The notes under the pieces are model-generated. The model was not told where the DNA came from and did no database searches. It saw nothing but the letters and a program-made list of their open reading frames with translations. Shown piece after piece: positions 5,506 through 55,604 of a DNA stretch of 64,000 bases. The DNA lies in the NCBI GenBank assembly GCA_963823665.1, contig CAWGMQ010000003.1, positions 1,434,388-1,498,387 on the forward strand, written 5' to 3'. The stretch's first letter is position 1; each line of letters opens with the position of its first letter. The translations under genes and the position numbers were made by a program. The DNA is from an uncultured Planctomycetota bacterium (GTDB taxonomy: Bacteria > Planctomycetota > Planctomycetia > Isosphaerales > Isosphaeraceae).

Positions 5506-6171
5506 ATGATCGGCGGGACTTTGTTGGATGATCTCAAGTGCGGCAAGAAGAGGAATATCATGGTGAAGTCGGCGTCTGCTGCCTTTGTCTTGTTGCTCCT
5601 CGGGGCCCACGGGGTCGGTGAGTTCAGCCGGCGCCTGGCCGAGCCGCTGAGCATGTTTCGTGACGGCGAGCAGGCGTGGCTAGGCTACGTGCTGTTTGCG
5701 ACGCTGCTGCTGGTCAGCATTTGGTATACGCGTGATGTGATCCGGGCAGGGGAAGAGGAAGAGGCGGTGATAGCCGGGCTGGCCGCCTCGCTGCTATTCA
5801 TCGTGGCCGTGACGCCGTCGTTAGAGGGTTTCCACATCTTGAGTTCCTTCCTCCTGATGCTGCTCTTGTTCGGGCATTACTGGCGGTTGCTCCGCGACTC
5901 GGGAAGCCCCTGGATCATCTTCCATGTGTTGGTGCCGTTCGCCTTGGTGTTGCTGAGCGGATGCCATAGCTACGGCTTGTGGCAGAAGTGCCTGATCCTC
6001 TATCTCGTAGCGATCGCCAACCTCCGCCACCATCGACTCTGTCGAATGAGTGAAGGCGAGCCGGTGTCGGAGTCCAACTCTGAGTGGTTCGGCGGTGGTG
6101 GAGTGAATAGGCGGCGAACGGTGTATCGGCTGGAAGCGGGGCAAGAGTGGGCGCGCTCGAAAACCCGGTAA
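5506..6171 (+). CDS. hypothetical multi-pass membrane protein
   Basis: 4-5 hydrophobic helices (FVLLLLGAHGV, VLFATLLLVSIWY, LAASLLFIVAV, FLLMLLLFGHYW, VLVPFALVLLSG); alternative start MVKSASA at 5560. Confidence 0.4.
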   Translation: MIGGTLLDDLKCGKKRNIMVKSASAAFVLLLLGAHGVGEFSRRLAEPLSMFRDGEQAWLGYVLFATLLLVSIWYTRDVIRAGEEEEAVIAGLAASLLFIVAVTPSLEGFHILSSFLLMLLLFGHYWRLLRDSGSPWIIFHVLVPFALVLLSGCHSYGLWQKCLILYLVAIANLRHHRLCRMSEGEPVSESNSEWFGGGGVNRRRTVYRLEAGQEWARSKTR

Positions 6172-6229
6172 GGCGGTGCCGAAGAGGTCGCTGCAATTGA
6201 TCGGGCGACCACTTCGGCTGCACGTGCGA

Positions 6230-6466
6230 TCAAGCGCGAGCGGGCCGCCCGGCAACTGAGCGTGGCGTTTCGGCTGCAAACGGTGACTGATGCTGAAGGC
6301 CCAGGGAATAGGGCAAGACGCTGATGGAGGCGCCGCTATCGACCAATCCGACTCCCGGCAGCGAACGCGACTGATGCCGAGGGACGATGGGAAGATCCGG
6401 CATCAGATCCAGCCCTCCGGAGGCCGGGTTCCTGTCGCAGTAGGGAAACTGTTCGACAATGCTCAA
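6230..6466 (-). pseudogene. fragment resembling the N-terminal half of a retropepsin-like (clan AA) aspartic protease
   Basis: LPGVGLVDSGASISVLPYSLGLQ contains the D-S/T-G-A catalytic motif; no in-frame continuation was found. Confidence 0.2.
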
Positions 6467-6675
6467 GAGCCGGTCCCTTCCTCCTTGAGGACCTTGGCCA
6501 GTTGGGCCGCGGCATTGCGGGCGTACTCTGGTGTGTAGGTTGGAAAGACATGACCTTCCGAAAACGGCACCGACTGTTCCTCTTTGGCCCGGTCGTCGAG
6601 CAGCATCTGCGCGATCTGGAATTTCTCGTTGCGCGAGCGCGCGCGAACCGCACGGATGATCTCAGCGGTCGACAT
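6463..6675 (-). CDS. small hypothetical protein (71 aa)
   Basis: ATG at 6675-6673 preceded by a strong RBS (AAGGAAG); MSTAEIIRAVRARSRNEKFQIAQMLLDD... Confidence 0.35.
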   Translation of the reverse strand: MSTAEIIRAVRARSRNEKFQIAQMLLDDRAKEEQSVPFSEGHVFPTYTPEYARNAAAQLAKVLKEEGTGS

Positions 6676-7086
6676 GGGTGCTTCCTTTGCTCCGCATCGC
6701 GCGATGGGACATGATCTTGCCATAGGTCGGAAAGAACCAGCGTGTCCGCGTTTCTCAGTATACTCTGCAAACTTCTTCAGCCTTCAGAGATTTCAGTGAG
6801 GAGCGTGAGGGGATTGGAGACACCGGCTGTCGAGACGTCGCCGCGGCAGTCCGATGACGTGGCCCCAATTCGTTCGTGTGGAGGAGCGGTACGATCTTCC
6901 CCGCGCCGGGGTGGTTCGCGGCTTGGCGGGTGGCGCGGTGAAGTTATGAGATGACGAGCCGGGTGGCTCTTTGGCGGGCAAGTCTGGGTCTGTCGGAGCC
7001 CCATGGGAGCGATCCGCTGGAGCGACCCGGCCGATTTCATCTACTACACATTGCTGCTTGGACGAAATACTAACCGCGTCCCAGTT

Positions 7087-7791
7087 TCACTTCCCGGCTC
7101 GCCGGCGCCGCCGTTTCCAGCAAGCCCGGCCCGCGGCGCCCAGTCCCAGCGCCGAGAACATCATCCAGAACGACGATGGCTCGGGGACGGCACTGGCCGA
7201 GATGAGAACCTGTCCGATTTCGACCATGCCCGCGCCGCTGGGCACGTTGGTGAAATACTGGGTGTTGGCGTTGGAATCGGTCCATATCGTGTTTTGGGCA
7301 CCTTCCAGAGCGTAGATGCCGAACAGTCCGGACGCGTTCGACGAAGCCAGGAAATCCATCTGGAGCAGATTGGCCCCAGGCGAGCCCGGAACCGGCACAC
7401 CGAGCGAGGCACTGGGATTCAAGAAATCAAACGCGCTCAACGAGCTACCGCTGTTGGTATTGATGGCCGTGATGCCAAGGCCGTTACTACCGAAGACGTA
7501 GTTTGTGGGGTTGGTGGGGAACGTCATCCCGGCCCCCGGGTCCTGAAACGTCAGGGTGCCGCTGGCGCCGGTTTCCGGGGCAATCGCCAGTACAAATTGC
7601 CAGGCGGCCATGATGTCGTTGGGAAAGTTGTTGCTCACGACGTTAACCAGCATCGGCCCGGACGTCGTGCCGGCGGACATGTCCAGCGGCGAGCCCGGCG
7701 AGTTGCTCGTACCCAGAGTCAGGTCGGCCCGGCTGGTGCCGCCGCCGAGCAGACCGAGAAAGACGATCGAAGGGAAAAAGAGTTTCTTCAT
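7087..7791 (-). CDS. PEP-CTERM sorting-domain secreted protein
   Basis: N-terminal signal peptide MKKLFFPSIVFLGLLGGGTSRA; C-terminal VPEPSSFWMMFSALGLGAAGRACWKRRRRRAGK (VPEP, TM helix, Arg-rich tail). Confidence 0.75.
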   Translation of the reverse strand: MKKLFFPSIVFLGLLGGGTSRADLTLGTSNSPGSPLDMSAGTTSGPMLVNVVSNNFPNDIMAAWQFVLAIAPETGASGTLTFQDPGAGMTFPTNPTNYVFGSNGLGITAINTNSGSSLSAFDFLNPSASLGVPVPGSPGANLLQMDFLASSNASGLFGIYALEGAQNTIWTDSNANTQYFTNVPSGAGMVEIGQVLISASAVPEPSSFWMMFSALGLGAAGRACWKRRRRRAGK

Positions 7792-7949
7792 ACGCGAGCC
7801 TTGCCCATGGGTTTGAGTCGAAGAAGAACATCGAACTTGCTCGAAGCGCCAACTGTCGGCGCATCGGGTTTGTACTTGACGACGAGAGGCCTGGCTTGTG
7901 GTCCTGCTTGCCGGGGTTCCCTGGGTATCGATTGCCGCGAGAACGTTCG

Positions 7950-8365
7950 CTCTACGCTACGCCGCTGCCGACTTGAATCGCCCGCGCGATGGTGGGCGTG
8001 GGCAACACGCCGATCGCTTCGTCGCTGGCGGCCTCAAACAAGGCGTCAACCAATGCTCCAGTCGGCGGCAGAATCGTCGTGGCCTCCGACGGTGGCACCG
8101 TCTGCGCGGATATTACTTTAGCCACGTCCGCGGCCGAGGGCAAGCGGCGCACGCCGGTCGCCAGGGTTTCGGCCATGAGGTCGGTGGGGGACGTGGTCGG
8201 ATCGAGATCGGAGAGCCCCAGCGTGTGGCCCAGCTCGTGCATCACGACCGTCAGCAAATCTTCATGCCCGGCGGCGACCATGGAGGGACCGGCCAGGAAG
8301 TCCCCCGGTGCCACGGGGTCTCCGGACGAGGTGCCGATCGACCAGCCGTAGCCGGCAGCATTCGC
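7950..8365. repeat. copy A of a ~415-bp duplicated segment (3' coding end of the giant gene)
   Basis: Near-identical to 14360..14775 (gctacgccgctgccgacttgaatcgcccgcgcgatggtgggcgt...); both translate to PGDFLAGPSMVAAGHEDLLTVVMHELGHTLGLSDLDPTTSPTDLMAETLATG... Confidence 0.85.
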
Positions 8366-11300
8366 GGAGAGATCCATGATGCTGCCGCCGATGGCGGTGC
8401 CGCCCAGGTAGCCGGCTGGAAGATTGGTGATCTGGACGGTGACGCCGCGCAGTTTGGCGACGTCCTGTTCGGGGAGTCCGGCGGCGGCCCAGTCATCGAT
8501 GGCGGCCGTGAGCACCGGGTCCAGCTCTTGCGGGGTGAGGGCCGAGGCGGCGCCGGGGCCTTCCCCGCCGGCGGCCAACTGCGGCGGCAGCGCCGGCAGC
8601 ACGGTGCCGATTTGCGGCCGGTAGAGCGTGAAGTCGGCCATGGTCACCGCGCCGTCGCCGTTCATGTCGTCGAACATGTTGTAGGTATTCGCCGGGGTCT
8701 CGTGCCGGAGGATCAGGACACCGTCGGTTGTATTGACCACGCCGTCGTCATTCACGTCGCCGGGCAGGACGTCGAGTTGCCCCGTGAAGGTGATGATCTG
8801 GGAGCTGCTGATCGTGATCGTCACAAGGTCTGGGCCCGCGATGGCTTTGTCGAACGTGATGAGGATGCTGGACGTCCCCGACCCGGAGATGCTAACCGGG
8901 CCGTAGTTGCCGCCGGTGATGCCTGTGACGCTGACATCGGCGGGAGTCAGCGTGGCGGCCTGGGCGAGAACAATCGCGATCCGGTTGATGTTGAACCAGG
9001 GCAGGTCGGTGGTGCGCCCGGCCGGAAGCAGCAGGCCGCCACCGGCGGTATAGAGCGGGGCGGTCTGCGAGCCCCAGTCGACCGAGACCCCGGAGACGGC
9101 GATCGTCGCTCCGGTCACGGTCAGGGTGTCAGCCGGGCTCGTGACGTTGCCGAGCGACGCGCTGATATTCGACGTGCCGATTCCCACCCCGGTGGCCAGG
9201 CCCTGGCTGCCGGCGGTGTTCGAGATGGTCGCGACCGAGGTCGTGGCCGACGCCCAGGTCACCGTGCTGGTCAGGTTCCCGGTCGAGTTGTCCGAATACA
9301 TGCCGGTGGCCGTGAACTGCTGGGTTTCACCCTTGGGAACCGTGGGGCTGGCCGGTGTGACGGCGATTGACTCCAGGACGGCGGCACGGGCGTTGAGCGT
9401 CGTCGAGCCGGTGATGCCGTCATACTTGGCGGTGATCAAGGAGGTACCGGTCGCCGCGACCGCGGTGGCCAGGCCGCCGGTGGAGATGGTGGCGACCGAG
9501 GTCGTGGCCGACGCCCAGGTCACCGTGCCGGTCAGGTTCCCGGTCGAGTTGTCCGAATAGGTGCCGGTGGCCGTAAACTGCTGGGTTTCACCCTTGGGAA
9601 CCATGGGGCTGGCCGGTGTGACGGCGATCGACTCCAGGACGGCGGGGCTGGCGTTGAGCGTCGTCGAGCCTGTGATGCCGTCATACTTGGCGGTGATCAA
9701 GGAGGTGCCAGTCGCCGCGACCGCGGTGGCCAGGCCGCCGGTGGAGATGGTGGCGACCGAGGTCGTGGCCGACGCCCAGGTCACCGTGCCGGTCAGGTTC
9801 CCGGTCGAGTTGTCCGAATAGGTGCCGGTGGCCGTAAACTGCTGGGTTTCACCCTTGGGAACCATGGGGCTGGCCGGTGTGACGGCGATCGACTCCAGGA
9901 CGGCGGGGCTGGCGTTGAGCGTCGTCGAGCCTGTGATGCCGTCATACTTGGCGGTGATCAAGGAGGTGCCAGTCGCCGCGACCGCGGTGGCCAGGCCGCC
10001 GGTGGAGATGGTGGCGACCGAGGTCGTGGCCGACGCCCAGGTCACCAGGGTGGTGAGAGGCTCGGTCGAGTTGTCCGAATAGGTGCCGGTGGCCGTGAAC
10101 TGTTGGGTCAGACCCTTGGCGACACTCGGATCGGCGGGCGTCACCGCGATTGAGACCAGCGCGGGCGAGAACTGATAGGCGCCGAGATCCGGAAAATATG
10201 AACGCGTGATGCCGCGCTGATCGACGGTGATCCCGGTTCCGGCCTCTCCGGTTCTCGAGGGCCGCGGTGCTTTGCGTCTTCAGAGCGATCGTCTGTGTGT
10301 CCCCGCCGTTGCTGGCCAGCCCGCCCGCGAAATTCGGGTCGGTGCCCATAACCAGGTCACCGGGCGGCAAGCCGTTGGATCCCATGCCGTTGCCGTTGAG
10401 GGTGACGAGGTTATTGGTGCTGCCGGTCAAGGTGGGCGTGGTGGCGCCGGCGTTGGTGCTGGTGAAGAAGTCGGATACGGTCGTGGTCGCGTTCTGGCCG
10501 AGGATGCAGTTGATGAGCTGGGCCGCGGCGGTGCCGGTGCCGGTGTAGGGGCTGGTGTTGTTGCCGCCGTTGCTCTTGTCGCTCAAGACGTAGAGGTCGG
10601 TGCCGCCCTGGGCTGCGGTATTGCCGCTGAAGGTGACGAAGGTGGCGTCGACGCTGCCGTTGCGGGCGAAGACGGCGCCGCCGAGGCCTTCTCCGTCGCC
10701 GCTGCCGCCGCTGGGACCGCCGTAGGCGAAGTTGGCGGTAAAGGTGTCGTTGGTGAGGGTGATCGCGCCTTGGTTGCTGAAGATGCCCCCACCCATGCCG
10801 GCGCCGCCGCCGCCGCCGCCGCCGAAGCCGCCGGCGCCGGCGCTGGCGGCGCCGCCGCCGCCGCCGAAGCCGGCGCCGCCGGCGGCGTGCCGCGAGCTGG
10901 CGGCGCCGCCGCCGCCGCCGAAGCCGCCGGCGCCGCCGCCGCCAAAGCCGCCGCCGCCGCCGCCGCCGCCGAAGCCGCCGCCGCCGCCGTCATTGCGGAG
11001 GCCGCCGCCGCCGCCGCCGCCGAAGCCGCCGGCGCCGCCGGCGCCGTTGGCGCCGCCGCCGGCGCCGCCGTGGACTCCGCCCCCAGATTGGTCGTTTAAG
11101 GGCGCGTTGGCCCCGAGGCCGCCGCCGCCGCCGTCGTCGCCGTCGTCGCGGCCCAGCCCGCCCTGGGCCTCGTTGTTGGCGAAGGTGCACCCCTCAGCCG
11201 TGAAACTGCCGCCGTTATCAAAGACCGCGCCCCCCAACCCAGCCCCGCCGCCGCCGCCGCCGCGCCCGCCCCGCCGAGCGCATCGCCATCTTGCAGCGTC

Positions 11301-11752
11301 AGGTTTTCCAGGGTCAGCGAGCTGTCGCTGGCCACGGTGAACAGGCGCACCGAGCCGCCGCCGTCGATGACCAGCCCCGGTGCCCCGGAGCCGTCGATGG
11401 TGATGTTGGTGCCGTTGCCGCTGACGAAGTACGCCGTCGGGCCATACTCGGCGGCAGCCGAGTTGGCCTCGCTGCTGGAGGTGAACATGATCGTGGAATT
11501 GGCGGGAATGCTGAAGGTGATCACGGCCGGCTGGGTGCCGGCGATGGCCTTGCCAATTTCGTAGCCGAGACTGCCGCTCGTGGTTGCTGAGGGACTGGTG
11601 TTGGTCACCATGTAGCTGAGCAAGCAGCGCTCTTCCAGCCGCTCCAGAAAGCGCTGGGCGGTGCGACGCCCGCGGCGCACGGGCGGCTTGCTCGGGCCTG
11701 GCGAGGAGCGGAACAGCGTTTTGAGCGTGGTCAGGGGCGTGCGGCGCGGCAT
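7952..11752 (-). CDS. giant secreted multidomain protein split over 3 frames by apparent frameshifts (~11230-11290 and ~10260-10280)
   Basis: N-term MPRRTPLTTL...RRGRRTAQRFLERLEERCLLS (planctomycete motif). Pmp-like GGAVF/FxxN repeats around poly-Gly tracts: LGGAVFDNGGSFTAEGCTFANNEA, GGAVFARNGSVDATFVTFSGNTA. Five ~87-aa Ig-like repeats (ESIAVTPASPMVPKGETQQFTATGTYSDNST...) and dockerin-like DVNDDGVVNTTD / DMNGDGAVTMAD. C-terminal HELGHTLGLSD zinc-binding motif. Confidence 0.6.
9300..10082. repeat. three tandem 261-bp units (two identical, one near-identical) encoding 87-aa Ig-like domains inside the giant gene
   Basis: Plus-strand ORFs 9561..9821 and 9822..10082 give identical 86-aa translations and 9300..9560 is near-identical; more diverged copies flank on both sides (~9039-9299 and 10083-10150). 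Confidence 0.85.
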
Positions 11753-11854
11753 GATTCATCTCCGGTGTGTTCTGTTCTCGGATTCGCACGACGATCGAGG
11801 CGGTGAATACTCCAGGTCAAGTCAGGGCCGCGCCACGGTGGCACGGCGGTCCCG

Positions 11855-14148
11855 TCACTCCACGGGCAAAGCGGCGAACAGGGCGGCCAGTGGTTCTTCG
11901 TAGTGCTTCCAGCGCGCCAGCGACTTGCGATAGAGCGGCTGGCGGACCTGCGTCACGCTGGCCGTGCGTACCGCCCGGGCTGTTTCATGGAACCGCGCGC
12001 AGGCCGGCTCCCACTCGAGGCCGCACGCCGCGAGCAACCGCGGGGCCTCGGACTGGAAGTCGTCGACGAGCTTTTCGTAAGCCACTTCGTGCACGCGCAC
12101 CGGCAACACGCTTTGCCAGTGCTGCCAGAGCCGCCGGTAATCGCGGCAGCGGCCGGCAAGCTGCTCCCGATCGTCGGCCCAGCGAATGCTGCGGAAGTTG
12201 GTCATCCAGCACGAGACCGCCACGTCGCGCAGGTCGCGGCGCACGTGGACGAACGTCGCCCGCGGAAACAGGAGCGCGAGCAGGCCCAGATAGAGGTAAT
12301 TGTCCGGCATCTTGTCCACGACCCGGTCCGGCCGGGCGCGATCGCCTGGAGAGTTTGGTCCAGTCCCTGGCGGTGCCGCCCGGAGAGCTCGCGCACGGCC
12401 GCCGCGTCCAGAGCCTCCAGGCAGGGGAGCATCTCGTCGGGCCGGCCCAGCAATTCGGGGATGGACACGAACAGCCTGCCCGCGAGAGCCAGCTCGCCCG
12501 CGCCGTGAACCCGCGAATGACTGGCCAGCACCTGCTCGACCAGGGTCGTGCCGGAGCGCGGCATGCCGAAGACGAAGACCGGCAGGCGCGTGTCGTCGCC
12601 TGCCCTGGCCAGACGGTCGAAGAGCTGCGGCGTGAAACCGGCGATGATCCGATCGACGAGCGCCGTGTGCACGGCGGGGTCATACTTTTTGCCGGCCCTG
12701 CGCCTCTGTTCCAGCGCGATGGCGTTGGCCTCTTCGAGGCAGCCGGCGGCCGCGGCATAGTCGCCGCGGGCGTCCAGCACCTGGGCCAGGCCAAAGAGCA
12801 ACTGGCCGCGTGCCGGCGAACGGGGGGGCAGGGGTGGCGGGACGGTCTGGCGATCTGTGGTAGGGGCGCCGAGCTGCGCCCGGATCGCTTCCAGGTCGGT
12901 TTCGGGCAACTTGCCGCGCAAGAGCATGGCCAACCGAGACAGCGGCAAGGGCGCCCGGGGATGAAGCGTCTGGGCGTGGCGATAGCGAGCCTCGGCCGCT
13001 GCCATTTCGCCGAGCTCTTCGTGGAGGCCGCCCTGGTTCAGGTGCGCGGCCACGTAACGCTCGTCCAGCTCGAGGGCCCGGCGATAAGAGGCGGCGGCCT
13101 CGGCGAACCGCCCCTCCTGCTGCAGTGCAAGGCCCAGGTGGTTGTGCGCCATGGCGAGCGTGGGATTGAGTTCGACCACGCGCTGCCAGCAAGCCAGGGC
13201 GGCCGCGTGGTCTTCGCCAGCGTCATGGGCGTTGGCCAGGTATTGCCGGATCGCGCCATCGTGCGGGGCCAGCTCGACCGCGTGGCGAAAGCAGGCAAAG
13301 GCGGCGGCGTGGTCGCCCTCGAGGAACAGGGCCAGACCGCGGTTGGCATCGATCTGGGCCACCTCAGAGGGAGGCCGCGATGCCTGGCTAGCCAGCCGCA
13401 GGGCCACTTCGTAGGCAGCCCGCGCCTCGCTGAAGCGCTCCAGGGCACGGTAGGCGTTGCCGAGATTGTTGTGGGCGGCCGGCAGGTCGCCCTGGAGCGT
13501 GACGGCTTCCGCGCAATGCGTGAGGCCTTCCTCGGCTTCGCCCTCTTCGACCAGCAGTTGGCCCAGGTTGCTGCGTGCCACCGCCAGCTTGGGATCGAGA
13601 TCGACCGCCAGGCGGTAAGCCTCGAGGGCTTCGCCCAAAGAGCCCAGCTCGCGGAGGGACGTACCGAGGTTGTTCCTGGCCAGGGCGAAATCGGGCCGCA
13701 TCTCCAGGGCGGCGCGGAACTCGGCCACGGCTTCGGCAAACCGCCCTGCGCGCGTGCAGCGCGAGGCCCTTGTTGTTGGCTGCCTCGGGGTAGTCCGGTC
13801 GAAGCCGCAGGGCGGTCCGGCAGCAGTCGATGGCCTCCTGGTGCTGGCCCAGGGCGCGGTGAACCTCGGCCAGGTTGGCGTGGTAAGCGGCGGTCTCGGG
13901 CTCGAGAACCACGGCGCGGGCGATCAGCTCGACCGCCCTGGCAGAATATCCGTTCTGGTGGTGCAGGACGCCGAAGAGATGCAGGGCACCGGCGTGGTCG
14001 GGCTGCCTGGTAAGCACGGTGTGATAGCAACGGGCCGCGTCGGCGAAACGACCCGCCTGGTGCAACTGCCAGGCGGTGGCAAGCTCGGAATCGGCTGGCT
14101 GTGTGACAAGGTGCAGGGGAAATCTCCCATTTGCAGGGGACTGGGTCA
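11855..14148 (-). CDS. TPR-repeat protein with C-terminal sulfotransferase domain (apparent frameshifts ~13760-13790 and ~12300)
   Basis: N-terminal TPRs (AWQLHQAGRFADAARCYHTVLTRQPDHAGALHLFGVLHHQNG...). P-loop-like PVFVFGMPRSGTTLVEQVLASH (sulfotransferase 5'-PSB motif) and the C-terminal sulfotransferase segment in ORF 11855..12319. Confidence 0.6.
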
Positions 14149-14289: not shown

Positions 14290-14775
14290 TCCGGCGACTT
14301 CTTGCCCGGCCGATTTTTTGTTCCGAAGAAATACTAGCTGCGTCCCGGTTTCGGTTTCCGCTCTAGCGCTACGCCGCTGCCGACTTGAATCGCCCGCGCG
14401 ATGGTGGGCGTAGGCCACACGCCGATCGCTTCCTCGCTGGCGGCCTCAAACAAGGCGTCAACCAATGCGCCTCTCGTCGGGAGAATCGTCGTGGCGGCCG
14501 GCGGTGGCACGGCCAGCGCGGCTATTACTTTAGCCACGTCCGCGGCCGAGGGCAAGCGGCGCGCGCCGGTCGCCAGGGTTTCGGCCATGAGGTCGGTGGG
14601 GGACGTGGTCGGATCGAGATCGGAGAGCCCCAGCGTGTGGCCCAGCTCGTGCATCACGACCGTCAGCAAATCTTCATGCCCGGCGGCGACCATGGAGGGA
14701 CCGGCCAGGAAGTCCCCCGGTGCCACGGGGTCTCCGGACGAGGTGCCGATCGACCAGCCGTAGCCGGCGGCATTC
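14290..14775. repeat. copy B: a ~60-bp 3'-flank motif fused directly to the ~415-bp duplicated coding segment
   Basis: 14360..14775 matches 7950..8365; 14298..14358 matches the 3' flank of the PEP-CTERM gene (7028..7097, gaaatacta..cgtccc.gtttc...ccg.ctc). Confidence 0.75.
14334..14726 (-). pseudogene. orphan C-terminal metzincin-like domain fragment, a partial duplicate of the giant gene's 3' end
   Basis: 130-aa translation almost identical to the last 125 aa of the 7952..10144 ORF; no upstream domains. Confidence 0.5.
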
Positions 14776-14954
14776 GCGGAATCCCTTTGGGTACGGGCCA
14801 GCCCGGTTTCTTACTACAGAACAGGTGAAGCCTCGGGTCCCTGCGAGCGGTCCTTCGCAAGTTTTGCCGGAGCGGTGAACAGATATAATAGCCATATCGT
14901 ATAGATAGACGTACTGAACGAGGTAAGCGTGATGCCAGCCAGAGGAGCGCAGTC

Positions 14955-23333: not shown

Positions 23334-23712
23334 GGTGGCTCTTTATTGCTGTATCAGTTCCATTCAGTCCCATTTCTCGAATGGCCAAAAAGACATGTCT
23401 GGAGAAGCTCGCGTGAGAGCACAAGCCGAACCTGGATTCGGGAATGCCTCGGGGCAATTCGATCCGTGCGTGGGCGCGGGGAAATCGTCAGGCTAAAGCC
23501 TGACCTACCTCGAGCAGACGAGTGCGGGGGTTGGGGCTTCGCGAACGGCTCCGATTATTAGGGGAAGGTTGCGGGACAAACCAGCGGCTTTGGCGGGCGT
23601 CTTGGTGCATACTTGAATTTGAGATTGACGTCTGCGGGGGTTGTTGCGCGCTTCCCGGCCGGGCTGACCCGGCGAGGGGGAGTTGATCTCGCCGGGATTG
23701 AGGTGCGGCCAG

Positions 23713-26700
23713 ATGGCGGATTCGAGTCCCAGCAAATGGCGGAGGGTCAGGACCCCCACCGTTCTGCAAATGGAGGCGGCGGAGTGCGGAGCCGCTGCGC
23801 TGGGGATCGTCCTGGAGTTTTACGGCCGGTATATCCCCCTCGACGTGCTGCGCGACGATTGCGGCGTCTCGCGCGACGGCAGCAACGCGTTTTACATCAA
23901 AGAGGCGGCCAAGAGATACGGTCTGGAAGTCAAAGCGGGGCGGAAATCGGCCGAGGGGATACGATCCTGGCGGCCTCCGATCATTGCGTTCTGGCAGTGG
24001 AACCACTTCCTTGTGGTCGAGGGATTCGGGCATGGAAAGGTCTACGTGAACGATCCCGCCAGCGGCCGGCGGACGATGGGGTTCGAGGAGTTCCGGGAGG
24101 GATATTCGGGGATCGCGTTCACGTTCGAGCCTGGACCGCAGTTCGTCAAGCAAGGACGACGTCCGAGCATATTCCGCGGTCTGGCCAGACGACTGGCGAG
24201 CTCGCGGGTGGCGATTGTTTTCGTCGTGCTGGCCGGGCTGGCGCTCGTGATTCCCAACCTGGTGACGGCGGCTTTTCAGCGAGTGTTCATGGACGAGATC
24301 CTCATTCAGGGGCATCACAACTGGCTGAGGCCGCTGCTTGTGGCCATGGCACTGACGGCCATCCTGCGGGTTGCGGCGGCCGCGCTCCAGCAGTTGTACC
24401 TGACGCGGTTCGAGGTGAAGCTTTTGCTCGAAGAGTCGCTCAAGTTCCTGGGACACGTGCTGCGGTTACCGCTGGTCTTCTTTCAACGGCGATATACGGG
24501 CGATCTGGTGGCGCGCGTTTCGAGCACGGCACGCGTGGCCGCGCTGCTCTCGGGCGAGCTGGCGACGACGGCCGTCAGTTTGCTGACGCTGGTGGCTTAT
24601 GTCGCGGTGATGCTGCCTTATGAGCCGCTGCTGGCGATTGTGGGGCTCTTGATCAGCAGCTTGAATCTTGTTGCGCTCAAGATGTTCAGCCGCTGGAGGA
24701 GCGACCAGAACCGGGTGATCGAGCAGATACGCGGCAAGCTGCTGGCGGGGATCATGGGGGCGATCCAGATCGTCGAGAGCATCAAGGCGACCGGATCCGA
24801 GTCGGAAATGCTGGTGCGCTGGACGGGCGACCAGGCGCGAATGATCAACGCGGAACAAGTCCTTGGGGTTTACGACACGCTGCTGTTCGTGATTCCGCCG
24901 CTCCTGGCGAGCCTGACGACGATCGTGGTGCTGGGCCTGGGCGGCCACCAGGTCATGGCCGGCGGCCTGGGCATTGGCGTGCTGCTGGCGCTTCAGGCGC
25001 TGCTGGCGGGGTTCAATCAGCCATTCCTGGATCTGGCCCGACTGGGAGCCGACGTGCAGGAGCTGCGGGCCGATCTCGATCGGATCGACGACGTGCGGAA
25101 CCGGCCGATCGACCCGGTGTATGCACTGGCGGGGCAGATCACGGCGGTCTCCGGGGCAAGCGAGGCGGCGCGGGCGGCCGCGGCGCGGCACCGGCTCTCA
25201 GGGCACATCGAGTTTCGCAACGTCACGTTCGGGTACAACCGGACGGTCGAGGAGCCATTGATCCACGATTTCTCATTTGTTGCTATTCCTGGCCAGCGGA
25301 TTGCGCTTGTGGGCTCTTCGGGCAGCGGCAAATCGACGATCGGCCGGCTGGCGATGGGGCTGTATCAACCATGGAGCGGCGAGATTCTCTACGATGGCCA
25401 TCGGCTCGCGGAGATTCCTCGCGAGGTGTTCGTGAACTCGGTGCTGCTGGTTGACTCGGAGATTTGCCTGTTCGAGGGGACGGTGCGCGACAACCTGACG
25501 CTCTGGGATGATTTTGTTCCGATGGCGCGGCTGACGCAGGCGGGGGTGGAGGCGGCGATTCACCGCGATCTGCTTCAGCGGCGGGGCGGTTATGGCGCGG
25601 CTGTCAGCGAGGCGGGACGGAACTTTTCGGGCGGGCAGCGGCAGCGTCTTCAAATCGCGCGGGCGATTGTGCGGGAACCGAGCCTGCTCGTGCTGGACGA
25701 GGCCACGAGCGCGCTTGATCCGCGAACCGAGCGAATCGTCGACGACAACCTCCGCAGGCGAGGCTGCACCTGCTTGATCATCGCCCACCGGCTGACGACG
25801 ATCCGGGACTGCGACGAGATCATCGTCTTGAATGCAGGGCGAGTGGTGCAGCGCGGCACGCACGATGAGCTGATCGCGGATAGCGCGGGTGAGTATGCGC
25901 GGCTGCTTGCTTTTCAGGTGCTACCGGGGGTGCGGCACGGACGGTTTTCGTGGAGAAGGAGTCGAGCGGCCCAGACGATCGTTCCGGTGGAGAGCCGAAT
26001 CGAGATCGCCGGGAACTCGGCGGGGGGCCATGTGGAGCCGGTCGCGGTGCCCAGGGTGGTGGCGGGTGGAGAGCAGACGGATTCGCCGCGGTTCATCGTG
26101 GAGGAGCTGCTGCCCTACAGCCAGCCGGAGAGCACGGCGGCGAATCGTCCGCTTTCGCTTGACGATCCCGAAGCGGTCTGGTGGGTCTCATCCGGCGGGG
26201 TCGACGTGTTTTTCACACAGTTTGAGCCGGGTGCGCCGGAAGGGAACAGGCGGCATTTGTGCCGGGTGGAGGAAGGGGGCTCGATCTTCGCGATCAGCGG
26301 GGTTCGCGGCCGGTTGGGGAGTGGGCTGGTGGCCGTCGGGGCGGGGCCGGCTCAGCTTCTCAAGTTCGCCCGGGGTGATTTGATCCGCCTGAGCTTCGAG
26401 GAGGGGCTTTCCGAGCAAGTTGCGGTTCTGGTCGACGATTGGCTGCTGCGAGTCGGCCGCGCACTGGGGCGACTCGCGGGAATCGAAGGTTATCGCGAGC
26501 TTGAGTGGGACACTTGCACGGACCTCGATCGGGAGGTGCGGTTCGGTGTGCGCCAGGGAGTGGGCTGGGTGCGGCAGCTTAGCGGGAGCTCGTGGTTTCT
26601 GGATGAGGTTCCGGTTCCGGTGTCGGAGCTGGAGGCGAGGTTTCCCTTGAGCGAGAACCTCTGGCTCAAGACGACGAGCGAGGGCAGGGTTACTGCGTGC

Positions 26701-29031
26701 GACACGGCGACGATGATTCGCAGCAGCGATCCCTGGGCGGGCCTGGACGAGTTTCACCGGACGATGCTCGACTACATTTCCGGATTCGAGGACGAGCAAT
26801 CGCGCACGGGGTGGACCGAGTTCCGGCGATCGATGGAGCATGAGAACGCGCTCGTCGAATCGGTGACGACGGAGCTGGCGGCGGTGGCGACCGATTCGGC
26901 GATCTCGCCGATTGATCCCGGCGGAGACGCGCTCGTGACGGCGTGCCGCACGGTGGGCCAGGCGCTGGGGATCGAGGTTCGCGCGACCCGGACTGGTGGC
27001 CCGGATGGAACAGGGCCGTCGAGCGACCCGCTGGGAGACCTGGCGCGCGCCTCGGGTTTTCACGTGCGGCCGGTGACGCTTCCACCGGACTGGTGGCGCC
27101 AGGGCGGAAGCGAGCCGCTCCTGGGCCGAATGGCGGATTCCGGTGGTGTGCCGGTCGCGCTTGTCCCGGCGAAGGGCCGCGTGCCATGGGCCAAGCCTGT
27201 CTACAATCTATACGACCACGAGGGCCGGAGGCGGCCCGTCGACCTGCGGCTGGCGGAGAAGCTGGATTCGCGAGCGTGGGCCATTTACCGCACGCTGCCG
27301 GATGAGCCGCAGCGGAAGCTCGACCTGTTTCGGTTCAGCTTGAGTCTGCCGGGACTGGCGCGCGAGCTCTGGATGGTGATCTTGATGGCGCTCGTGGCGG
27401 CGATCCTGGGGTTGTCGATCCCGATCGCGGCGGGAATCCTGGTGGACCAGGTCATTCCGGAGGCCGATCGCGAGGGCCTGGCGGTGATGTGCGTTTTCCT
27501 GGTCGTCCTGGCCTTCTCGGCTGCGGCGTGCCGCGTGATTCAGGGGCTGATGGTGCTGCGCGTGGAAGGGAGGGTGTCGTCGACGATCATCCCGGCCGTC
27601 TGGGACCGATTGCTGCGGCTGCCGACGGGTTTCTTCGCAAGGTTCAGCTCCGGTGATCTGGCGTTTCGCGCGATGGAATTCAGCAAGGTTTTCAAGAAGG
27701 TGTCCGGGGCGACGGTCACCACCTTGATGATGGGTTTGTTCGCCTTGTTCAATCTGGGCCTGCTTTTCTTCTATAGCTGGAGGATGGCGCTGTGCACCAC
27801 GTTCCTGGTGGGCTTGATGCTCGCGGTGACGGGCTTTCTGCTGGCGGGTCTCTTGCGGTACGGGAATTCGATCCACCGGATCGACGGCGTGATCTCGGGG
27901 CTATTGCTGGAGCTGCTGGGTGGAATTGTCACGCTGCGAACGGCGGGTGCGGAACGGCGTGCGTTTTCCCGGTGGGCCAGCCGATATACGGAGCGTCTGG
28001 TGCTCTCGATCCAAGGGAGACGGATTGCGAACCGGTTGCATCAATGGCTGGCGGTCTATCCGATTCTCACAGCGATGTTCGTGTATGTGGGAGCGCTATA
28101 CCTGGACACGGGGTTGTTGAAAACAGGGAGTTTCCTGGCGTTTTCGATCGCGTTTGCGAACTTGATGGCTGCGATCCTGGCGGTGGGATATAGCTCGATG
28201 GGGCTGCTCGATCTGCTGCCGACGTTCGAGCGGCTCAGGCCGATACTGGAGGAGCGCCCGGAGTTTGCAGCGGCGGTGATCGAGCCGGTGCGGCTGTACG
28301 GGGCGATCTCACTCAACCACATCTCATTTCGCTATCCGGGCCAGGACCAGGGGACGAAGGTGCTGGACGACGTGAGCCTTCAGGTCCGGCCGGGTGAATT
28401 CGTGGCGATTGTCGGGCCATCGGGGGCGGGAAAATCGACCTTGATGCGGCTGTTGCTCGGGTTCGAGACGCCAGATGCCGGGTCGGTGACCTATGACGGC
28501 CGAGAGCTGACGACGCTCGACTTGCGGGACGTGCGGCGTCAGATCGGCGTGGTCTTGCAGCAAGCCCAGCTTCTACCCACGGACATCGTGGGCAACATCA
28601 TCGGGTTTGCGCCGCTGCTCAACATCGACGACGCGTGGGAGGCCGCGCGGCTGGCGGGCCTGGAGGAAGACATCCGGCGGATGCCAATGGGGATGCATAC
28701 CCTGGTCGGGGAAGGCGGAGGAAACCTGTCGAGCGGTCAGCGGCAGCGCTTGCTGATTGCGCGGGCGATCGTGCGGCGGCCGAGGATTCTACTGCTCGAC
28801 GAAGCGACCAGCGCACTCGATAACGCCACGCAGGCTATTGTGAGCGACAGCCTGACGAACCAGCTTCGGGGCATCACGCGGGTGGTGATCGCGCACCGGC
28901 TCGACGTGGTCGTGAAGGCCGATCGCATCTACGTGCTGAAGGACAGCCGGATCGTTCAATCCGGGCCGTATCACCAACTGCTGGAGGAGTCAGGACCGTT
29001 CCGAGAGCTGGCGCGGCGGCAGATGCTGTGA
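23713..29031 (+). CDS. single-chain NHLM/NHLP-type bacteriocin export ABC transporter: C39 peptidase, TMD1-NBD1, ~400-aa accessory middle domain, TMD2-NBD2
   Basis: C39: QMEAAECGAAALGIVLEFYG...WNHFLVVEGF. NBD1: GSSGSGKST, FSGGQRQRLQIARAIV, LLVLDEATSALD, IIAHRL. NBD2: GPSGAGKST, LSSGQRQRLLIARAIV, ILLLDEATSALD, VIAHRL. Two 6-helix TMDs; one uninterrupted 1,772-aa frame. Confidence 0.85.
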   Translation: MADSSPSKWRRVRTPTVLQMEAAECGAAALGIVLEFYGRYIPLDVLRDDCGVSRDGSNAFYIKEAAKRYGLEVKAGRKSAEGIRSWRPPIIAFWQWNHFLVVEGFGHGKVYVNDPASGRRTMGFEEFREGYSGIAFTFEPGPQFVKQGRRPSIFRGLARRLASSRVAIVFVVLAGLALVIPNLVTAAFQRVFMDEILIQGHHNWLRPLLVAMALTAILRVAAAALQQLYLTRFEVKLLLEESLKFLGHVLRLPLVFFQRRYTGDLVARVSSTARVAALLSGELATTAVSLLTLVAYVAVMLPYEPLLAIVGLLISSLNLVALKMFSRWRSDQNRVIEQIRGKLLAGIMGAIQIVESIKATGSESEMLVRWTGDQARMINAEQVLGVYDTLLFVIPPLLASLTTIVVLGLGGHQVMAGGLGIGVLLALQALLAGFNQPFLDLARLGADVQELRADLDRIDDVRNRPIDPVYALAGQITAVSGASEAARAAAARHRLSGHIEFRNVTFGYNRTVEEPLIHDFSFVAIPGQRIALVGSSGSGKSTIGRLAMGLYQPWSGEILYDGHRLAEIPREVFVNSVLLVDSEICLFEGTVRDNLTLWDDFVPMARLTQAGVEAAIHRDLLQRRGGYGAAVSEAGRNFSGGQRQRLQIARAIVREPSLLVLDEATSALDPRTERIVDDNLRRRGCTCLIIAHRLTTIRDCDEIIVLNAGRVVQRGTHDELIADSAGEYARLLAFQVLPGVRHGRFSWRRSRAAQTIVPVESRIEIAGNSAGGHVEPVAVPRVVAGGEQTDSPRFIVEELLPYSQPESTAANRPLSLDDPEAVWWVSSGGVDVFFTQFEPGAPEGNRRHLCRVEEGGSIFAISGVRGRLGSGLVAVGAGPAQLLKFARGDLIRLSFEEGLSEQVAVLVDDWLLRVGRALGRLAGIEGYRELEWDTCTDLDREVRFGVRQGVGWVRQLSGSSWFLDEVPVPVSELEARFPLSENLWLKTTSEGRVTACDTATMIRSSDPWAGLDEFHRTMLDYISGFEDEQSRTGWTEFRRSMEHENALVESVTTELAAVATDSAISPIDPGGDALVTACRTVGQALGIEVRATRTGGPDGTGPSSDPLGDLARASGFHVRPVTLPPDWWRQGGSEPLLGRMADSGGVPVALVPAKGRVPWAKPVYNLYDHEGRRRPVDLRLAEKLDSRAWAIYRTLPDEPQRKLDLFRFSLSLPGLARELWMVILMALVAAILGLSIPIAAGILVDQVIPEADREGLAVMCVFLVVLAFSAAACRVIQGLMVLRVEGRVSSTIIPAVWDRLLRLPTGFFARFSSGDLAFRAMEFSKVFKKVSGATVTTLMMGLFALFNLGLLFFYSWRMALCTTFLVGLMLAVTGFLLAGLLRYGNSIHRIDGVISGLLLELLGGIVTLRTAGAERRAFSRWASRYTERLVLSIQGRRIANRLHQWLAVYPILTAMFVYVGALYLDTGLLKTGSFLAFSIAFANLMAAILAVGYSSMGLLDLLPTFERLRPILEERPEFAAAVIEPVRLYGAISLNHISFRYPGQDQGTKVLDDVSLQVRPGEFVAIVGPSGAGKSTLMRLLLGFETPDAGSVTYDGRELTTLDLRDVRRQIGVVLQQAQLLPTDIVGNIIGFAPLLNIDDAWEAARLAGLEEDIRRMPMGMHTLVGEGGGNLSSGQRQRLLIARAIVRRPRILLLDEATSALDNATQAIVSDSLTNQLRGITRVVIAHRLDVVVKADRIYVLKDSRIVQSGPYHQLLEESGPFRELARRQML

Positions 29032-49661: not shown

Positions 49662-51044
49662 TCACTTCCGGGTCACGAGCCCTGAATAACTTCGCACAAC
49701 GAGGTGGCCGTCGATCTTTTGCACAAGGTCCAGACAGACGCTGATGACAATCAGCAGTCCCGTGCCGCCCAGGAACGATGCGACCGTCCAGTCGACCTGC
49801 AGCGCCGATTGCACGAGAGACGGAATCACGGCGACAAGAGCCAGGAATGCCGCTCCAACATACGTGATCCGCAGCATCACTTTTTCGAGATAGTCGGCTG
49901 TTCGCCGACCCGGCCGGTACCCCGGGATGAAGCTGCCCAGATCCTTGAGGTTCTCGGCCATATCTTTGGGGTTGAATGTGATCGCCGTCCAGAAATAACA
50001 GAAGAAATAGATCAGGATCACGTAGCAGACCGTGTAGATATAGCTCTGGCGCTGAAAGGCGTAGGACAAGTCGCGGAAAATCCCGGCGAAGACCGATCCA
50101 ACCGTCCAGCTCTCGTTCTGCAGATTACTCGTCGCCTTCTCCAGACTGGTGAAGACGAAGGATGGGAAAATCAAGAGGCTGGAAGCAAAGATGATCGGCA
50201 TCACCCCCGCCTGATTGACCTTCAGCGGCAGGAACTGCTTGGTGCCGCCGTAAACCCGCCGGCCGCGCACGTGCTTCGCCGACTGCGTCGGAATGCGCCG
50301 CTGGCTCTCTGTGATCGCAATCACACCGACCACCACCGCTATGAATAGCCCGATTAACATCAAAATCGTCGTGATCCCATATTTGCCCGGCTCGGCGTTC
50401 AATTTCGAGGTCGAGTTGTACCAAAGGCCGTTCGGTCCGGTGATCGCAACCGGCAGACGGGCCAGAATGCCCGCCATGATCAAGAGGCTGATCCCGTTGC
50501 CAATCCCGTATTCGTCAATTTGCTCACCAATCCACATCAGGAAAATCGTCCCGGCCGTCATGATGCAAACACACACGAACCCGTTCCAAAATGTGTGATA
50601 TCGCTGCAACACCACGTTCATCTGTGGGCTCATCATATACTGCACCCAGAAGGCACTTTGAATTGCACAGAGAACCACTGTCGCGTAGCGTGTGTATTCG
50701 TTGATTCGCTTCCGCCCGCTTTCGCCCTCCTTCATCATCGCTTCCAGCGATGGAACAACGCTGGCCAGAAGCTGAAAGATGATCGAGGCCGAAATATACG
50801 GCATGATCCCCAGGCCGAAGATCGTGCTCATGCCGATCGATGTGCCGCCGAACATCGCAACCGTGCCGAAAAGCTTGCCGGCCGTGTGACCGCTCTGCTG
50901 CTCCTCCCAGTTTTTCAACTGCGCTTGATTGACGATCGGCAACGGGACGTAGAAGCCGATCCGGTAGATCGCCAGGAGCAGGCAAGTGAACAGAATCTTG
51001 CGCCTGAGCTCAGGTACCTTGAAGATGGTGATGAGCTTATCCAC
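49662..51044 (-). CDS. secY: preprotein translocase SecY (GTG start)
   Basis: 10 TM helices; FGLGIMPYISASIIFQLL; RRIPTQSAKHVRGRRVYGG. Confidence 0.95.
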   Translation of the reverse strand: MDKLITIFKVPELRRKILFTCLLLAIYRIGFYVPLPIVNQAQLKNWEEQQSGHTAGKLFGTVAMFGGTSIGMSTIFGLGIMPYISASIIFQLLASVVPSLEAMMKEGESGRKRINEYTRYATVVLCAIQSAFWVQYMMSPQMNVVLQRYHTFWNGFVCVCIMTAGTIFLMWIGEQIDEYGIGNGISLLIMAGILARLPVAITGPNGLWYNSTSKLNAEPGKYGITTILMLIGLFIAVVVGVIAITESQRRIPTQSAKHVRGRRVYGGTKQFLPLKVNQAGVMPIIFASSLLIFPSFVFTSLEKATSNLQNESWTVGSVFAGIFRDLSYAFQRQSYIYTVCYVILIYFFCYFWTAITFNPKDMAENLKDLGSFIPGYRPGRRTADYLEKVMLRITYVGAAFLALVAVIPSLVQSALQVDWTVASFLGGTGLLIVISVCLDLVQKIDGHLVVRSYSGLVTRK

Positions 51045-51150
51045 GTGCGATCCCCTCCTCGACTACGACCGCGTCCTGGCATCGTGCGCAAGCCCGTTCG
51101 GTGCCCGCCTCGCCCGGGTTGCACGCCGGGCAATTCCACATCTCTCGCAT
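51037..51150 (-). CDS. 37-aa putative zinc-ribbon protein (CPAC...CARC) between rplO and secY, overlapping the secY start by 8 nt
   Basis: Own translation: MREMWNCPACNPGEAGTERACARCQDAVVVEEGIARG; operon position and overlap suggest translational coupling. Confidence 0.3.
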   Translation of the reverse strand: MREMWNCPACNPGEAGTERACARCQDAVVVEEGIARG

Positions 51151-51191
51151 AGAATAGGACGGCCTGTGCACGCCAATCGCTCCTTAGCGGC

Positions 51192-52210: not shown

Positions 52211-52252
52211 GGACGAACTCCCCCAGACAATCGTCTTTTGAAGTAATGGTCG

Positions 52253-52666: not shown

Positions 52667-52675
52667 ACCGGAAGG

Positions 52676-53227: not shown

Positions 53228-53301
53228 CGTTCTGTCTTCCTTCTATCCGCTTGAGTGTGAATCTCTTTTCCAGGGCTGACCGCCGCCGCCTCCAGTCGCG
53301 G

Positions 53302-55590: not shown

Positions 55591-55604
55591 GAGAATAACC
55601 TCTT

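Follow-up and report, generated by a model that had tools for sequence, protein, structure and literature searches.

Two adjacent genes lie on the minus strand of the window, that is, of the whole 64,000-nucleotide stretch of planctomycete DNA analysed here. Gene A encodes a conceptual multidomain protein and gene B, which starts 160 nt downstream of it, a small PEP-CTERM protein with a predicted cohesin fold. Terminator-like sites were absent between the two genes and occurred at chance level in 6800-12000, where no promoter-like sites were found. Scanning the entire window for Rfam families and tRNAs gave no hits. The features of the locus are the following.

7952-11752, minus strand: gene A, a conceptual 1,266-aa multidomain protein with two single-base frame breaks in the assembly (ORF list, three-frame translation and homologue P0001)
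11615-11752, minus strand: N-terminal leader, Arg/Pro-rich and without a hydrophobic core, ending in LEERCLLS (11615-11638; from the sequence)
10160-11614, minus strand: parallel beta-helix-type passenger with GGAVF...FxxN repeats, of the choice-of-anchor Q / CSLREA family (NCBIfam NF041518)
11244-11278, minus strand: frame break 1, one base missing in a GC-rich (GCG)n/G-run stretch coding for Gly/Ala (sequence and BLASTP against P0001)
10241-10256, minus strand: frame break 2, one extra base (sequence and alignment with P0001)
10227-11340, plus strand: spurious antisense ORFs, Ala-rich at 10227-11099 and Pro-rich at 10732-11340, opposite the Gly-coding tract (ORF list)
9116-10159, minus strand: four Ig-like Big_2 domains, each 87 aa long, at 9899-10159, 9638-9898, 9377-9637 and 9116-9376 (Pfam PF02368)
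9450-10046, minus strand: exact period-261 stretch of 336 nt (9450-9785 equals 9711-10046), within the TRF array at 9222-10119
8774-9109, minus strand: X module of ~112 aa, always immediately upstream of the dockerin (conservation across loci)
8624-8764, minus strand: dockerin with two DxNxDGxxxxxD calcium loops, 8723-8761 and 8633-8671 (Pfam Dockerin_1)
7955-8542, minus strand: putative C-terminal snapalysin-like metzincin domain, with HELGHTLGLSD at 8207-8239 and the Met-turn DLMAETL at 8162-8182
7087-7791, minus strand: gene B, 234 aa, with a Sec-type signal peptide (7726-7791), a predicted cohesin-fold beta-sandwich (~7198-7722) and a PEP-CTERM anchor (7108-7191)
14359-14780, minus strand: truncated gene A copy, 422 bp, 95.7% identical to the 3'-terminal ~139 codons of gene A

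Reading frame and repeats of gene A

The minus strand of 7952-11752 contains no unbroken ORF, either in the ORF list or in three-frame translation, and is called as three pieces of 218, 615 and 730 aa. The coding signal follows frame A from 11752 to ~11279, moves to frame B from ~11243 to ~10257 and returns to frame A for 10240-7952; the stops in frame A are at 11096-11098 and 10280-10282. The product of ~1,266 aa is a conceptual translation only and requires two single-base repairs. A preliminary description had presented a secreted giant of ~1,260 aa; a large multidomain protein of extracellular type is indeed encoded here, but three frames had been silently spliced where no intact ORF exists. 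The homologue P0001 (1159 aa) is colinear with gene A without gaps through both break sites. At break 1, 50 nt correspond to 17 codons in P0001 and the repaired BLASTP alignment is ungapped; at break 2, 16 nt correspond to 5 codons, again in an ungapped alignment, with 73.9% identity. Frame-repaired gene A scored 40.8 bits with the NCBIfam model NF041518 (choice_anch_Q), whose cut-off is 25. The match covers model positions 1-57 of 58 at 10169-10340 and is contiguous only when break 2 is repaired.

The extent of frameshifting was assessed by Pfam on split ORFs, as GC3 and codon-usage frame plots were too noisy window-wide. EF-G was found in four ORFs, L4 in three and L2 in two, with L23 truncated, and these essential genes together carry at least seven breaks in ~5.6 kb. 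The adjoining TPR-sulfotransferase gene is split too, and the relatives come from long-contig MAGs with similar breaks, e.g., L004 and L006. Since frameshifts also disrupt EF-G, L2, L4 and L23 of this window, both breaks in gene A are, on sequence comparison, most likely errors in the consensus of an error-prone long-read metagenome assembly and not biology. Programmed frameshifting and phase variation were considered as well and rejected for both breaks, the essential genes of the window being broken alike. Break 2 has neither a long homopolymer nor a slippery site, and trinucleotide slippage at the (GCG)n of break 1 cannot alter the frame.

The Big_2 model (PF02368) matched gene A at 135 bits over four stretches. 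The preliminary description had counted five Ig-like domains, of which the fifth would have to be the X module. Units 1 and 2 are 88.9% identical and units 2 and 3 97.7% at the nucleotide level, the latter pair differing by two amino acids, and unit 4 is at ~69%. The TRF array at 9222-10119 has a 261-bp period, 3.4 copies and 95% matches, which confirms the near-perfect 261-bp tandem units reported previously but not their register. The intervals 9561-9821 and 9822-10082, said to be 100% identical in protein, differ at 9 nt and ~4 residues (NSTEPLTTL and NSTGNLTGT in the frame-0 translation); the exact 336-nt repeat is in another register. Several near-identical tandem Big_2 units are also present in L082, an intact homologue from a short-read assembly, and such arrays are therefore genuine in proteins of this class. 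In what we regard as the best explanation, the Big_2 stalk of gene A was recently expanded by tandem duplication of 261 bp.

Two other explanations of gene A concern the sequence itself. It could be a genuine pseudogene, in which two compensating real frameshifts leave fragments only, namely a 218-aa N-terminal and a 730-aa C-terminal piece, the latter from a GTG at 10144. The in-frame stops at 11096 and 10282 are there in the sequence as given, and the truncated 3'-end copy at 14359-14780 indicates that the locus has seen rearrangement and decay. Because indel errors are uneven over the window, some of whose long ORFs are intact (e.g., the 1,782-aa ORF at 23683-29031), this explanation keeps some probability. 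We consider it quite unlikely, since each of the three segments is stop-free in its own coding frame, one base added or removed restores the P0001 spacing at both sites, and the far more frequent breaks in EF-G, L2, L4 and L23 are explicable by assembly error only. Alternatively, the near-identical 261-bp units may be an artefact of an over- or under-collapsed repeat, such that the true number of Big_2 domains is not four. The assembly has a poor-quality consensus and an exact repeat of 336 nt could be mis-resolved; yet the array is only ~0.9 kb and easily within the span of long reads, its units are not all identical, and the L082 array argues against an artefact too. We give this second explanation little credence.

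Domains of the gene A product

A classical signal peptide is lacking at the N-terminus of gene A. An LE-R-LLS motif at residues ~35-50 is also found in P0001, P0022, P0074, the protein at 3645-6110 of L002 and the L082 protein, and the planctomycete N-terminal motif noted previously is thereby upheld, with LEERCLLS at the same position in homologues. In the helix that follows, a tract at residues 161-330 (~10766-11278) consists of 54% Gly. Homologues of gene A are named choice-of-anchor Q or CSLREA. These proteins share with gene A the GG-rich repeats and the DQRG...GAY ending of the helix, whereas the CSLREA motif is degenerate in gene A (GSLGYEIGKA). No papers came up in a literature search for choice-of-anchor/CSLREA together with Planctomycetes.

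The X module is kept in 55 of the 78 loci examined. It had no match in a Pfam scan, and its profile overlaps weakly with type II X-dockerin dyads (2b59_B, E 0.0056). The Dockerin_1 model (PF00404) matched residues 997-1043 at 32.8 bits, above its cut-off of 22.9, and both calcium loops are present, GDVNDDGVVNTTD (8723-8761) and DDMNGDGAVTMAD (8633-8671). A dockerin profile of 40 homologues matched solved dockerins, e.g., that of CelS (2mte, E 5e-9); P116-G123 and D129 are invariant in all 40 sequences of the alignment. The feature previously described as a dockerin-like pair is thus, by its sequence, a genuine dockerin. The closest relative in a scan of genome contigs was 65% identical. The domain combination, which had been called unusual, recurs: the X-dockerin(-metzincin) cassette is found at the C-terminus behind many different N-terminal passengers in Planctomycetota.

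The C-terminal domain was examined by conservation and by structure prediction. Within HELGHTLGLSD, the H, G and H residues are invariant and E is present in 66 of 67 homologues; the third zinc-ligand position is D in 55/67. The Met-turn residue M123, found in 63/67, is 11 residues past D112, which is the spacing described for snapalysins (PMC3890501). The predicted structure has the fold of a metzincin catalytic domain, with snapalysin the closest. A sequence-only search against PDB sequences returned nothing significant and Pfam M7 did not match gene A, while Peptidase_M10 (PF00413) matched the motif region only, at 16.4 bits against a cut-off of 24. Some homologues carry PF00413 or the name "matrixin family". 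We predict that this domain is a putative small snapalysin-like zinc-metallopeptidase. The HExxHxxGxxD metzincin-like domain of the preliminary description is supported by these results. Asp as the third zinc ligand, also raised there, fits because snapalysin, the nearest predicted fold, is a metzincin family with HExxHxxGxxD, and Asp is the norm among the homologues. Snapalysin itself (MEROPS M7, the small neutral protease of Streptomyces, PDB 4hx3) is only 19% identical to the gene A domain and is a free small enzyme, whereas the latter is the C-terminal module of a 1,266-aa protein; a further difference is His as the third ligand in 7 of the 67 homologues.

Gene B and its linkage to X-dockerin genes

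Gene B was absent from the preliminary description and is the most informative feature of the locus. Its PEP-CTERM segment (PF07589; VPEPSSFWMMFSALGLGAAGRACWKRRRRRAGK; 21.9 bits against 20.7) consists of a PEP motif, a hydrophobic helix and a basic tail. The part between signal peptide and anchor is predicted to fold into a nine-stranded jelly-roll beta-sandwich of cohesin topology. In Foldseek, the top match and many others were type II cohesin complexes; the similarity is cohesin-specific, a clear gap separating it from other beta-sandwiches. The Pfam Cohesin model (PF00963) did not match gene B or nine related neighbours at E<=5, and the gene B family profile found nothing among PDB sequences at E<=10. 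We propose on the basis of the predicted structure that gene B encodes a cryptic, cohesin-like protein. Structure-level searches may uncover cohesins that sequence models overlook.

The genomic association of the two genes was examined across loci. A gene B homologue is directly downstream in all six of the closest loci (L001-L006). More broadly, 26 of 55 loci have a PEP-CTERM ORF of ~210-300 aa right after the X-dockerin gene, and only 31 such ORFs exist in the 939 kb that these loci comprise; a PEP-CTERM neighbour is missing from about half of the X-dockerin loci. With the PEP-CTERM tail removed, the distant downstream proteins aligned to gene B with an hhalign probability of 94.9% (E 4.5e-8, 161 columns), and they are, at the level of profile comparison, remote homologues of gene B. 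Nearest-neighbour subfamilies of the X-dockerin and the downstream protein were concordant in 13/23 cases. A Mantel-type correlation between X-dockerin and neighbour divergence was weak (Spearman 0.15, reached by 98/2000 permutations). In the reverse direction, all four contigs fetched via gene B homologues have an X-dockerin gene immediately upstream, and in three of them start and stop codons overlap by 4 nt.

A proposed surface-display system

A dockerin plug on gene A beside a membrane-anchored cohesin-like socket on gene B suggests attachment in the style of the cellulosome. We propose, with a probability of roughly 0.6, that genes A and B form a two-gene surface-display cassette of a Gemmataceae-like planctomycete, in which the dockerin plugs into an exosortase-anchored cohesin, and that the frame breaks are assembly errors. 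The gene A product would be exported and consist, in order, of the LE-R-LLS leader, the Gly-rich beta-helix, a stalk of four Big_2 domains, the X-dockerin dyad and the snapalysin-like domain. The gene B product would be exported and then anchored in the cell envelope via the exosortase pathway, and the Ca2+-dependent dockerin of A would plug into its cohesin. The gene A product would consequently be attached to the cell surface by non-covalent binding, which would leave its adhesin-like helix and protease domain exposed. Such a scheme would parallel the anchoring of cellulosomes by type II X-dockerin and cohesin, with PEP-CTERM in place of SLH or sortase.

The placement of gene A on the cell surface could also be explained otherwise. 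The preliminary description had likened its repeats to those of Chlamydia Pmp proteins, and a Pmp-type autotransporter adhesin could account for the two GGA[ILV] and four FxxN motifs, the only such tetrapeptides in the predicted beta-helix. The resemblance is one of motifs only: Pfam Chlam_PMP (PF02415) did not match gene A at E<=1, the helix belongs instead to the choice_anch_Q family, and the C-terminus is X-dockerin-metzincin, with no autotransporter barrel in the Pfam scan at E<=1. These HMM results and C-terminal domains effectively refute a Pmp or autotransporter identity, and we rejected it. A more serious alternative is that A is an adhesin/protease that is freely secreted or otherwise attached, with its dockerin binding another partner or serving as a calcium module only, and that B is an unrelated PEP-CTERM beta-sandwich, adjacent through co-regulation or co-export. 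The absence of a cohesin signal at the sequence level would be expected in this case, as would the many X-dockerin genes without such a neighbour, and non-cellulosomal dockerins lacking a known partner are common, as Peer et al. reportedly found in 2009. Weighed against this are the cohesin-specific fold match of gene B and a linkage that is tight, bidirectional and subfamily-matched, with overlapping start and stop codons in several loci. We regard an unrelated gene B as unlikely and favor the two-gene cassette.

The cassette can be compared with two known or proposed systems. In the cellulosome of Clostridium thermocellum, the X-dockerin of CipA binds the cohesins of SdbA, OlpB or Orf2p. As in that type II system, a large extracellular protein carries an X module and dockerin dyad close to its C-terminus and the partner, here predicted, is a cohesin-fold module on a small surface-anchored protein; the Foldseek matches of gene B and the weak profile matches to X-dockerin dyads are in line with this likeness. 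Differences are the host, here one of the Gram-negative-type Planctomycetota, the anchor (PEP-CTERM/exosortase in place of SLH or sortase), the cargo (a beta-helix/Ig/metzincin protein rather than a scaffoldin or a carbohydrate-active enzyme), and a cohesin that is invisible to PF00963 and encoded, as predicted partner, by the adjacent gene. The "Planctosome" hypothesis for Nemodlikiaceae (Andrei et al. 2019, PMC6461901) proposed that non-cellulosomal cohesin/dockerin modules hold zinc peptidases at the cell surface. Both cases involve planctomycete dockerin and, here predicted, cohesin modules outside cellulosomes together with a zinc peptidase-type domain. Cohesins of the "Planctosome" model are detectable by Pfam, its anchor is a lamin-tail domain and its M12B/M14 peptidases are on dockerin proteins of their own (PMC6461901), whereas here a single cryptic cohesin with PEP-CTERM is the predicted anchor and the peptidase-like domain follows the dockerin in one fused protein.

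The cassette may exemplify a widespread and undescribed display system in Planctomycetota, a generalization to which we give even odds. Small PEP-CTERM cryptic cohesins would be the cognate envelope sockets for upstream X-dockerin proteins, each genome would have many subfamily-matched pairs, and one and the same C-terminal plug would receive varied passengers, namely beta-helices, Ig arrays and metzincin-like domains. No papers on PEP-CTERM together with cohesin came up in literature searches, and the only match for cohesin, dockerin and exosortase concerns methanotrophic archaea. Planctomycetes encode very many large extracellular proteins, for which the pairing of X-dockerin and PEP-CTERM-cohesin would, if true, be a concrete mechanism of attachment. 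It would also extend cohesin-dockerin biology past cellulosomes and Gram-positive anchors to exosortase-sorted proteins and would explain what >500 protein clusters of a "hypothetical PEP-CTERM" family do.

The indel-rich assembly makes ORF-based annotation of the window unreliable, including the pieces in which gene A is called and the antisense Pro/Ala-rich ORFs, which had been anticipated as spurious and are indeed present. The truncated copy of gene A is called as an ORF of 130 aa (14334-14726), to which P0128 is identical at 129 of 130 aligned residues; the single mismatch is probably the GTG start.

Reading frames of gene A

No single open reading frame (ORF) covers gene A, the target gene at 7952–11752 (−). 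ORF listing and translation instead returned three pieces in two minus-strand frames, A and B:

11096–11752 (−), ORF piece 1, 218 aa, frame A
9942–11789 (−), ORF piece 2, 615 aa, frame B
7952–10144 (−), ORF piece 3, 730 aa from a GTG, frame A

The protein-like signal opens with the ATG at 11752 and stays in frame A until about 11279 (...LENLTLQDGDA). Frame B carries it between about 11243 (AGLGGAVFDNGGSFTAEGCTFANN...) and about 10257 (...KTQSTAAL), and frame A takes over again at 10240 (GTGITVDQRG...) until the stop at 7952. Frame A itself is interrupted by stops at 11096 and 10282. The gene is repaired by adding one base within 11244–11278 (junction 1), which sits in a GC-rich (GCG)n/G-run stretch, and removing one base within 10241–10256 (junction 2). 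Since the signal lies in three frame segments, the protein of ~1,260 aa in the preliminary description needs both one-base repairs; it stands as a repaired translation and falls as an intact ORF.

The frame breaks are most likely assembly errors, and we consider it improbable that they mark a true pseudogene. P0001, the best database homologue (1,159 aa), is colinear with gene A through both junctions, where 50 nt of the window face 17 residues of P0001 at junction 1 and 16 nt face 5 residues at junction 2. By BLASTP and local alignment, the repaired protein aligns with P0001 without gaps over both junctions at 65–74% identity, and the NCBIfam choice_anch_Q model (positions 1–57 of 58) crosses junction 2 only once the frame is repaired. 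Relatives of the window are long-contig metagenome-assembled genomes that show similar breaks. The tail of P0001 looks out of frame, so its contig probably carries indel errors too. In P0001 a leaderless beta-helix module is tandemly duplicated (residues ~47–555 and ~559–1045) and followed by a single Big_2 domain.

The assembly carrying the window is error-prone. The gene directly upstream of gene A, encoding a TPR-Sulfotransfer_3 protein (11855–13728, −), is split by a frameshift near 12320, with profile positions 1–33 in one ORF and 106–216 in the next. The ribosomal-protein/EF-G operon at 51000–64000 (−) contains about 7 breaks in 5.6 kb (for example at 61905–63912). Essential genes are hit there: EF-G is spread over four ORFs with successive domains (GTP_EFTU, D2, III+IV and C), L4 is in three pieces, L2 is in two and L23 is truncated. 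These breaks indicate a consensus built from unpolished long reads or from mixed strains. ORF-based annotation of the window is unreliable throughout.

Domain organization of the gene A protein

Residues 1–46 of the repaired protein, which is 1,266 aa long, form an Arg/Pro-rich leader that lacks a hydrophobic core and ends in LEERCLLS. The LE-R-LLS motif occupies the same position in the database proteins P0001, P0022 and P0074, as it does in further large proteins of the homologous loci L002 and L082. Residues ~47–528 make up a beta-helix-type region; it contains three GG(A/G)(V/I)F...FxxN units as well as a tract of 54% Gly. The preliminary description had likened these repeats to Chlamydia Pmp; however, the Pmp model found no match in a Pfam scan of the repaired protein, and the region is matched by choice_anch_Q instead (NCBIfam, 40.8 bits; cut-off 25). 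Its relatives carry the names choice-of-anchor Q or CSLREA. The ORFs rich in Ala (290 and 136 aa) or in Pro (202 aa) at 10227–11340 (+) and 10583–10993 (−) are read from the strand facing the Gly-coding tract or in another frame of it, and are translation artefacts of its (GGC)n-rich sequence, as had been warned.

Four Big_2 domains follow the beta-helix in four stretches (Pfam, 135 bits) and lead into the X module:

9899–10159 (−), Big_2 unit 1 (Pfam)
9638–9898 (−), Big_2 unit 2 (Pfam)
9377–9637 (−), Big_2 unit 3 (Pfam)
9116–9376 (−), Big_2 unit 4 (Pfam), second half divergent
8774–9109 (−), X module, ~112 aa, no Pfam match, directly after the Big_2 array and before the dockerin

Nucleotide identity is 88.9% between units 1 and 2 and 97.7% between units 2 and 3, the latter with 2 amino-acid differences. 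The longest exact run of period 261 is 336 nt (9450–9785 identical to 9711–10046); the 261-bp units at 9561–9821 and 9822–10082, earlier taken to be identical, differ at 9 nt in that register. Several near-identical tandem Big_2 units also occur in the 1,088-aa homologue of L082, which is intact and from short reads; recent expansion of the stalk is therefore real and recurs within this protein class.

The dockerin scores 32.8 bits in Pfam against a cut-off of 22.9 and has two DxNxDGxxxxxD loops. A profile of 40 homologous X-dockerin modules matches solved dockerins at E 5e-9. The C-terminal domain (7955–8542) is barely visible to sequence models, with Peptidase_M10 at 16.4 bits (cut-off 24) and MMP-16 at E 0.29 in a phmmer search of the PDB. 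Its family numbers at least 144 proteins, a handful of them carrying a matrixin annotation. Across 67 aligned members H102, G105 and H106 never vary and 66 keep E103; the third-ligand position is occupied by Asp in 55 members and by His in 7, and a Met follows 11 residues later in 63. Snapalysin is the metzincin family that combines HExxHxxGxxD with a Met ~10 residues past the third ligand (PMC3890501). The conserved ligands, the Met spacing and the snapalysin pattern together support the earlier idea of Asp as third zinc ligand and argue against a HELGH segment that aligns to no metzincin fold. The domain is a putative snapalysin-like metzincin.

Gene B and its linkage to the X-dockerin gene

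Gene B (7087–7791, −) lies on the same strand, starting 160 nt downstream of gene A, and no terminator-like site was found between the two. Its 234-aa product, to which the database protein P0241 is 100% identical, has a Sec-type signal peptide, a PEP-CTERM tail and no other Pfam domain. Sequence models detected no cohesin signal in it. Its AlphaFold2 model (pLDDT 85.6) matches cohesins and essentially nothing else: cohesins account for 43 of 45 Foldseek matches at E ≤ 1e-3, headed by a type II cohesin-dockerin complex. Judged by this predicted structure, gene B probably encodes a cohesin-fold protein; a search for its family yields 534 cluster representatives (E ≤ 1e-3).

In each of the six closest loci the X-dockerin gene is directly followed by a gene B homologue. 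The N-terminal passengers of these X-dockerin proteins are entirely different: L001 has repeats of another type, and the 1,239-aa protein of L002 has an N-terminal region of its own. Among the 55 fetched loci containing the X module (939 kb scanned), 26 have a PEP-CTERM ORF of 210–300 aa immediately after the X-dockerin gene, and only 31 PEP-CTERM-like ORFs occur in the whole 939 kb. About half of the related X-dockerin loci lack such a neighbour. Even with their PEP-CTERM tails removed, the more distant neighbours are homologous to the gene B family (hhalign probability 94.9%, E 4.5e-8, 161 columns). In 13 of 23 cases a single locus supplied the nearest relative both of the X-dockerin module and of its neighbour, where chance would give ~1. 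Conversely, all four contigs fetched through gene B homologues have an X-dockerin gene immediately upstream, three of them with a 4-nt stop/start codon overlap. Several genomes, such as Umea_bin-02666 and MFD09671.bin.3.67, hold multiple pairs.

L001, L002, L079 and L082 share the C-terminal X-dockerin(-metzincin) cassette and the PEP-CTERM neighbour behind unrelated passengers (repeat arrays of a different type in L001 and L079, eight Big_2 domains in L082, the 1,239-aa region in L002), a pattern suggesting that shuffling brings modules to a constant "plug". A transposase-like ORF (6151–7395) lies just upstream in L002.

The best-supported reading is that genes A and B form a two-gene cassette. 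We propose that the cohesin of gene B, presumably anchored through PEP-CTERM, would act as an envelope socket into which the X-dockerin of the large, presumably exported gene A protein may plug, so that the beta-helix, the Ig stalk and the putatively proteolytic snapalysin-like domain would be displayed on the cell surface. Domains, folds, conservation and gene linkage are what was observed; binding, anchoring, export and proteolysis belong to the proposal. The cassette would work like the type II X-dockerin/cohesin anchoring of cellulosomes and is also similar to the hypothetical "planctosome" (PMC6461901), but differs in its PEP-CTERM anchor, cryptic cohesin, adjacent-gene pairing and cargo. 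Our literature search found no paper naming PEP-CTERM together with cohesin. The observations of the preliminary description were in part confirmed and its interpretation is in part supported; the gene A protein itself is of known kinds, and what is new and of chief interest is the paired PEP-CTERM cohesin within the cohesin-dockerin theme.

Other features of the window

The last ~139 codons of gene A (7948–8368) recur at 14359–14780 (−), upstream of the sulfotransferase gene, as a 422-bp direct copy with 95.7% identity. The copy extends 4 nt beyond the stop and is a truncated remnant, which suggests that the conserved C-terminal cassette was once a site of duplication or recombination. In public data it appears as the 130-aa protein P0128, matched by the ORF at 14334–14726 at 129 of 130 aligned residues; the single mismatch is probably the GTG start codon.

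The whole 64 kb yielded no Rfam family at gathering score and no tRNA, despite the ribosomal-protein operon. An intact 1,782-aa ORF at 23683–29031 (+), for which we found no link to gene A, combines an N-terminal Peptidase_C39 with two ABC_membrane and two ABC_tran domains and is a fused double bacteriocin-type exporter. Downstream of it lie a 373-aa ORF and then an 892-aa ORF with an SPFH/Band_7 domain.
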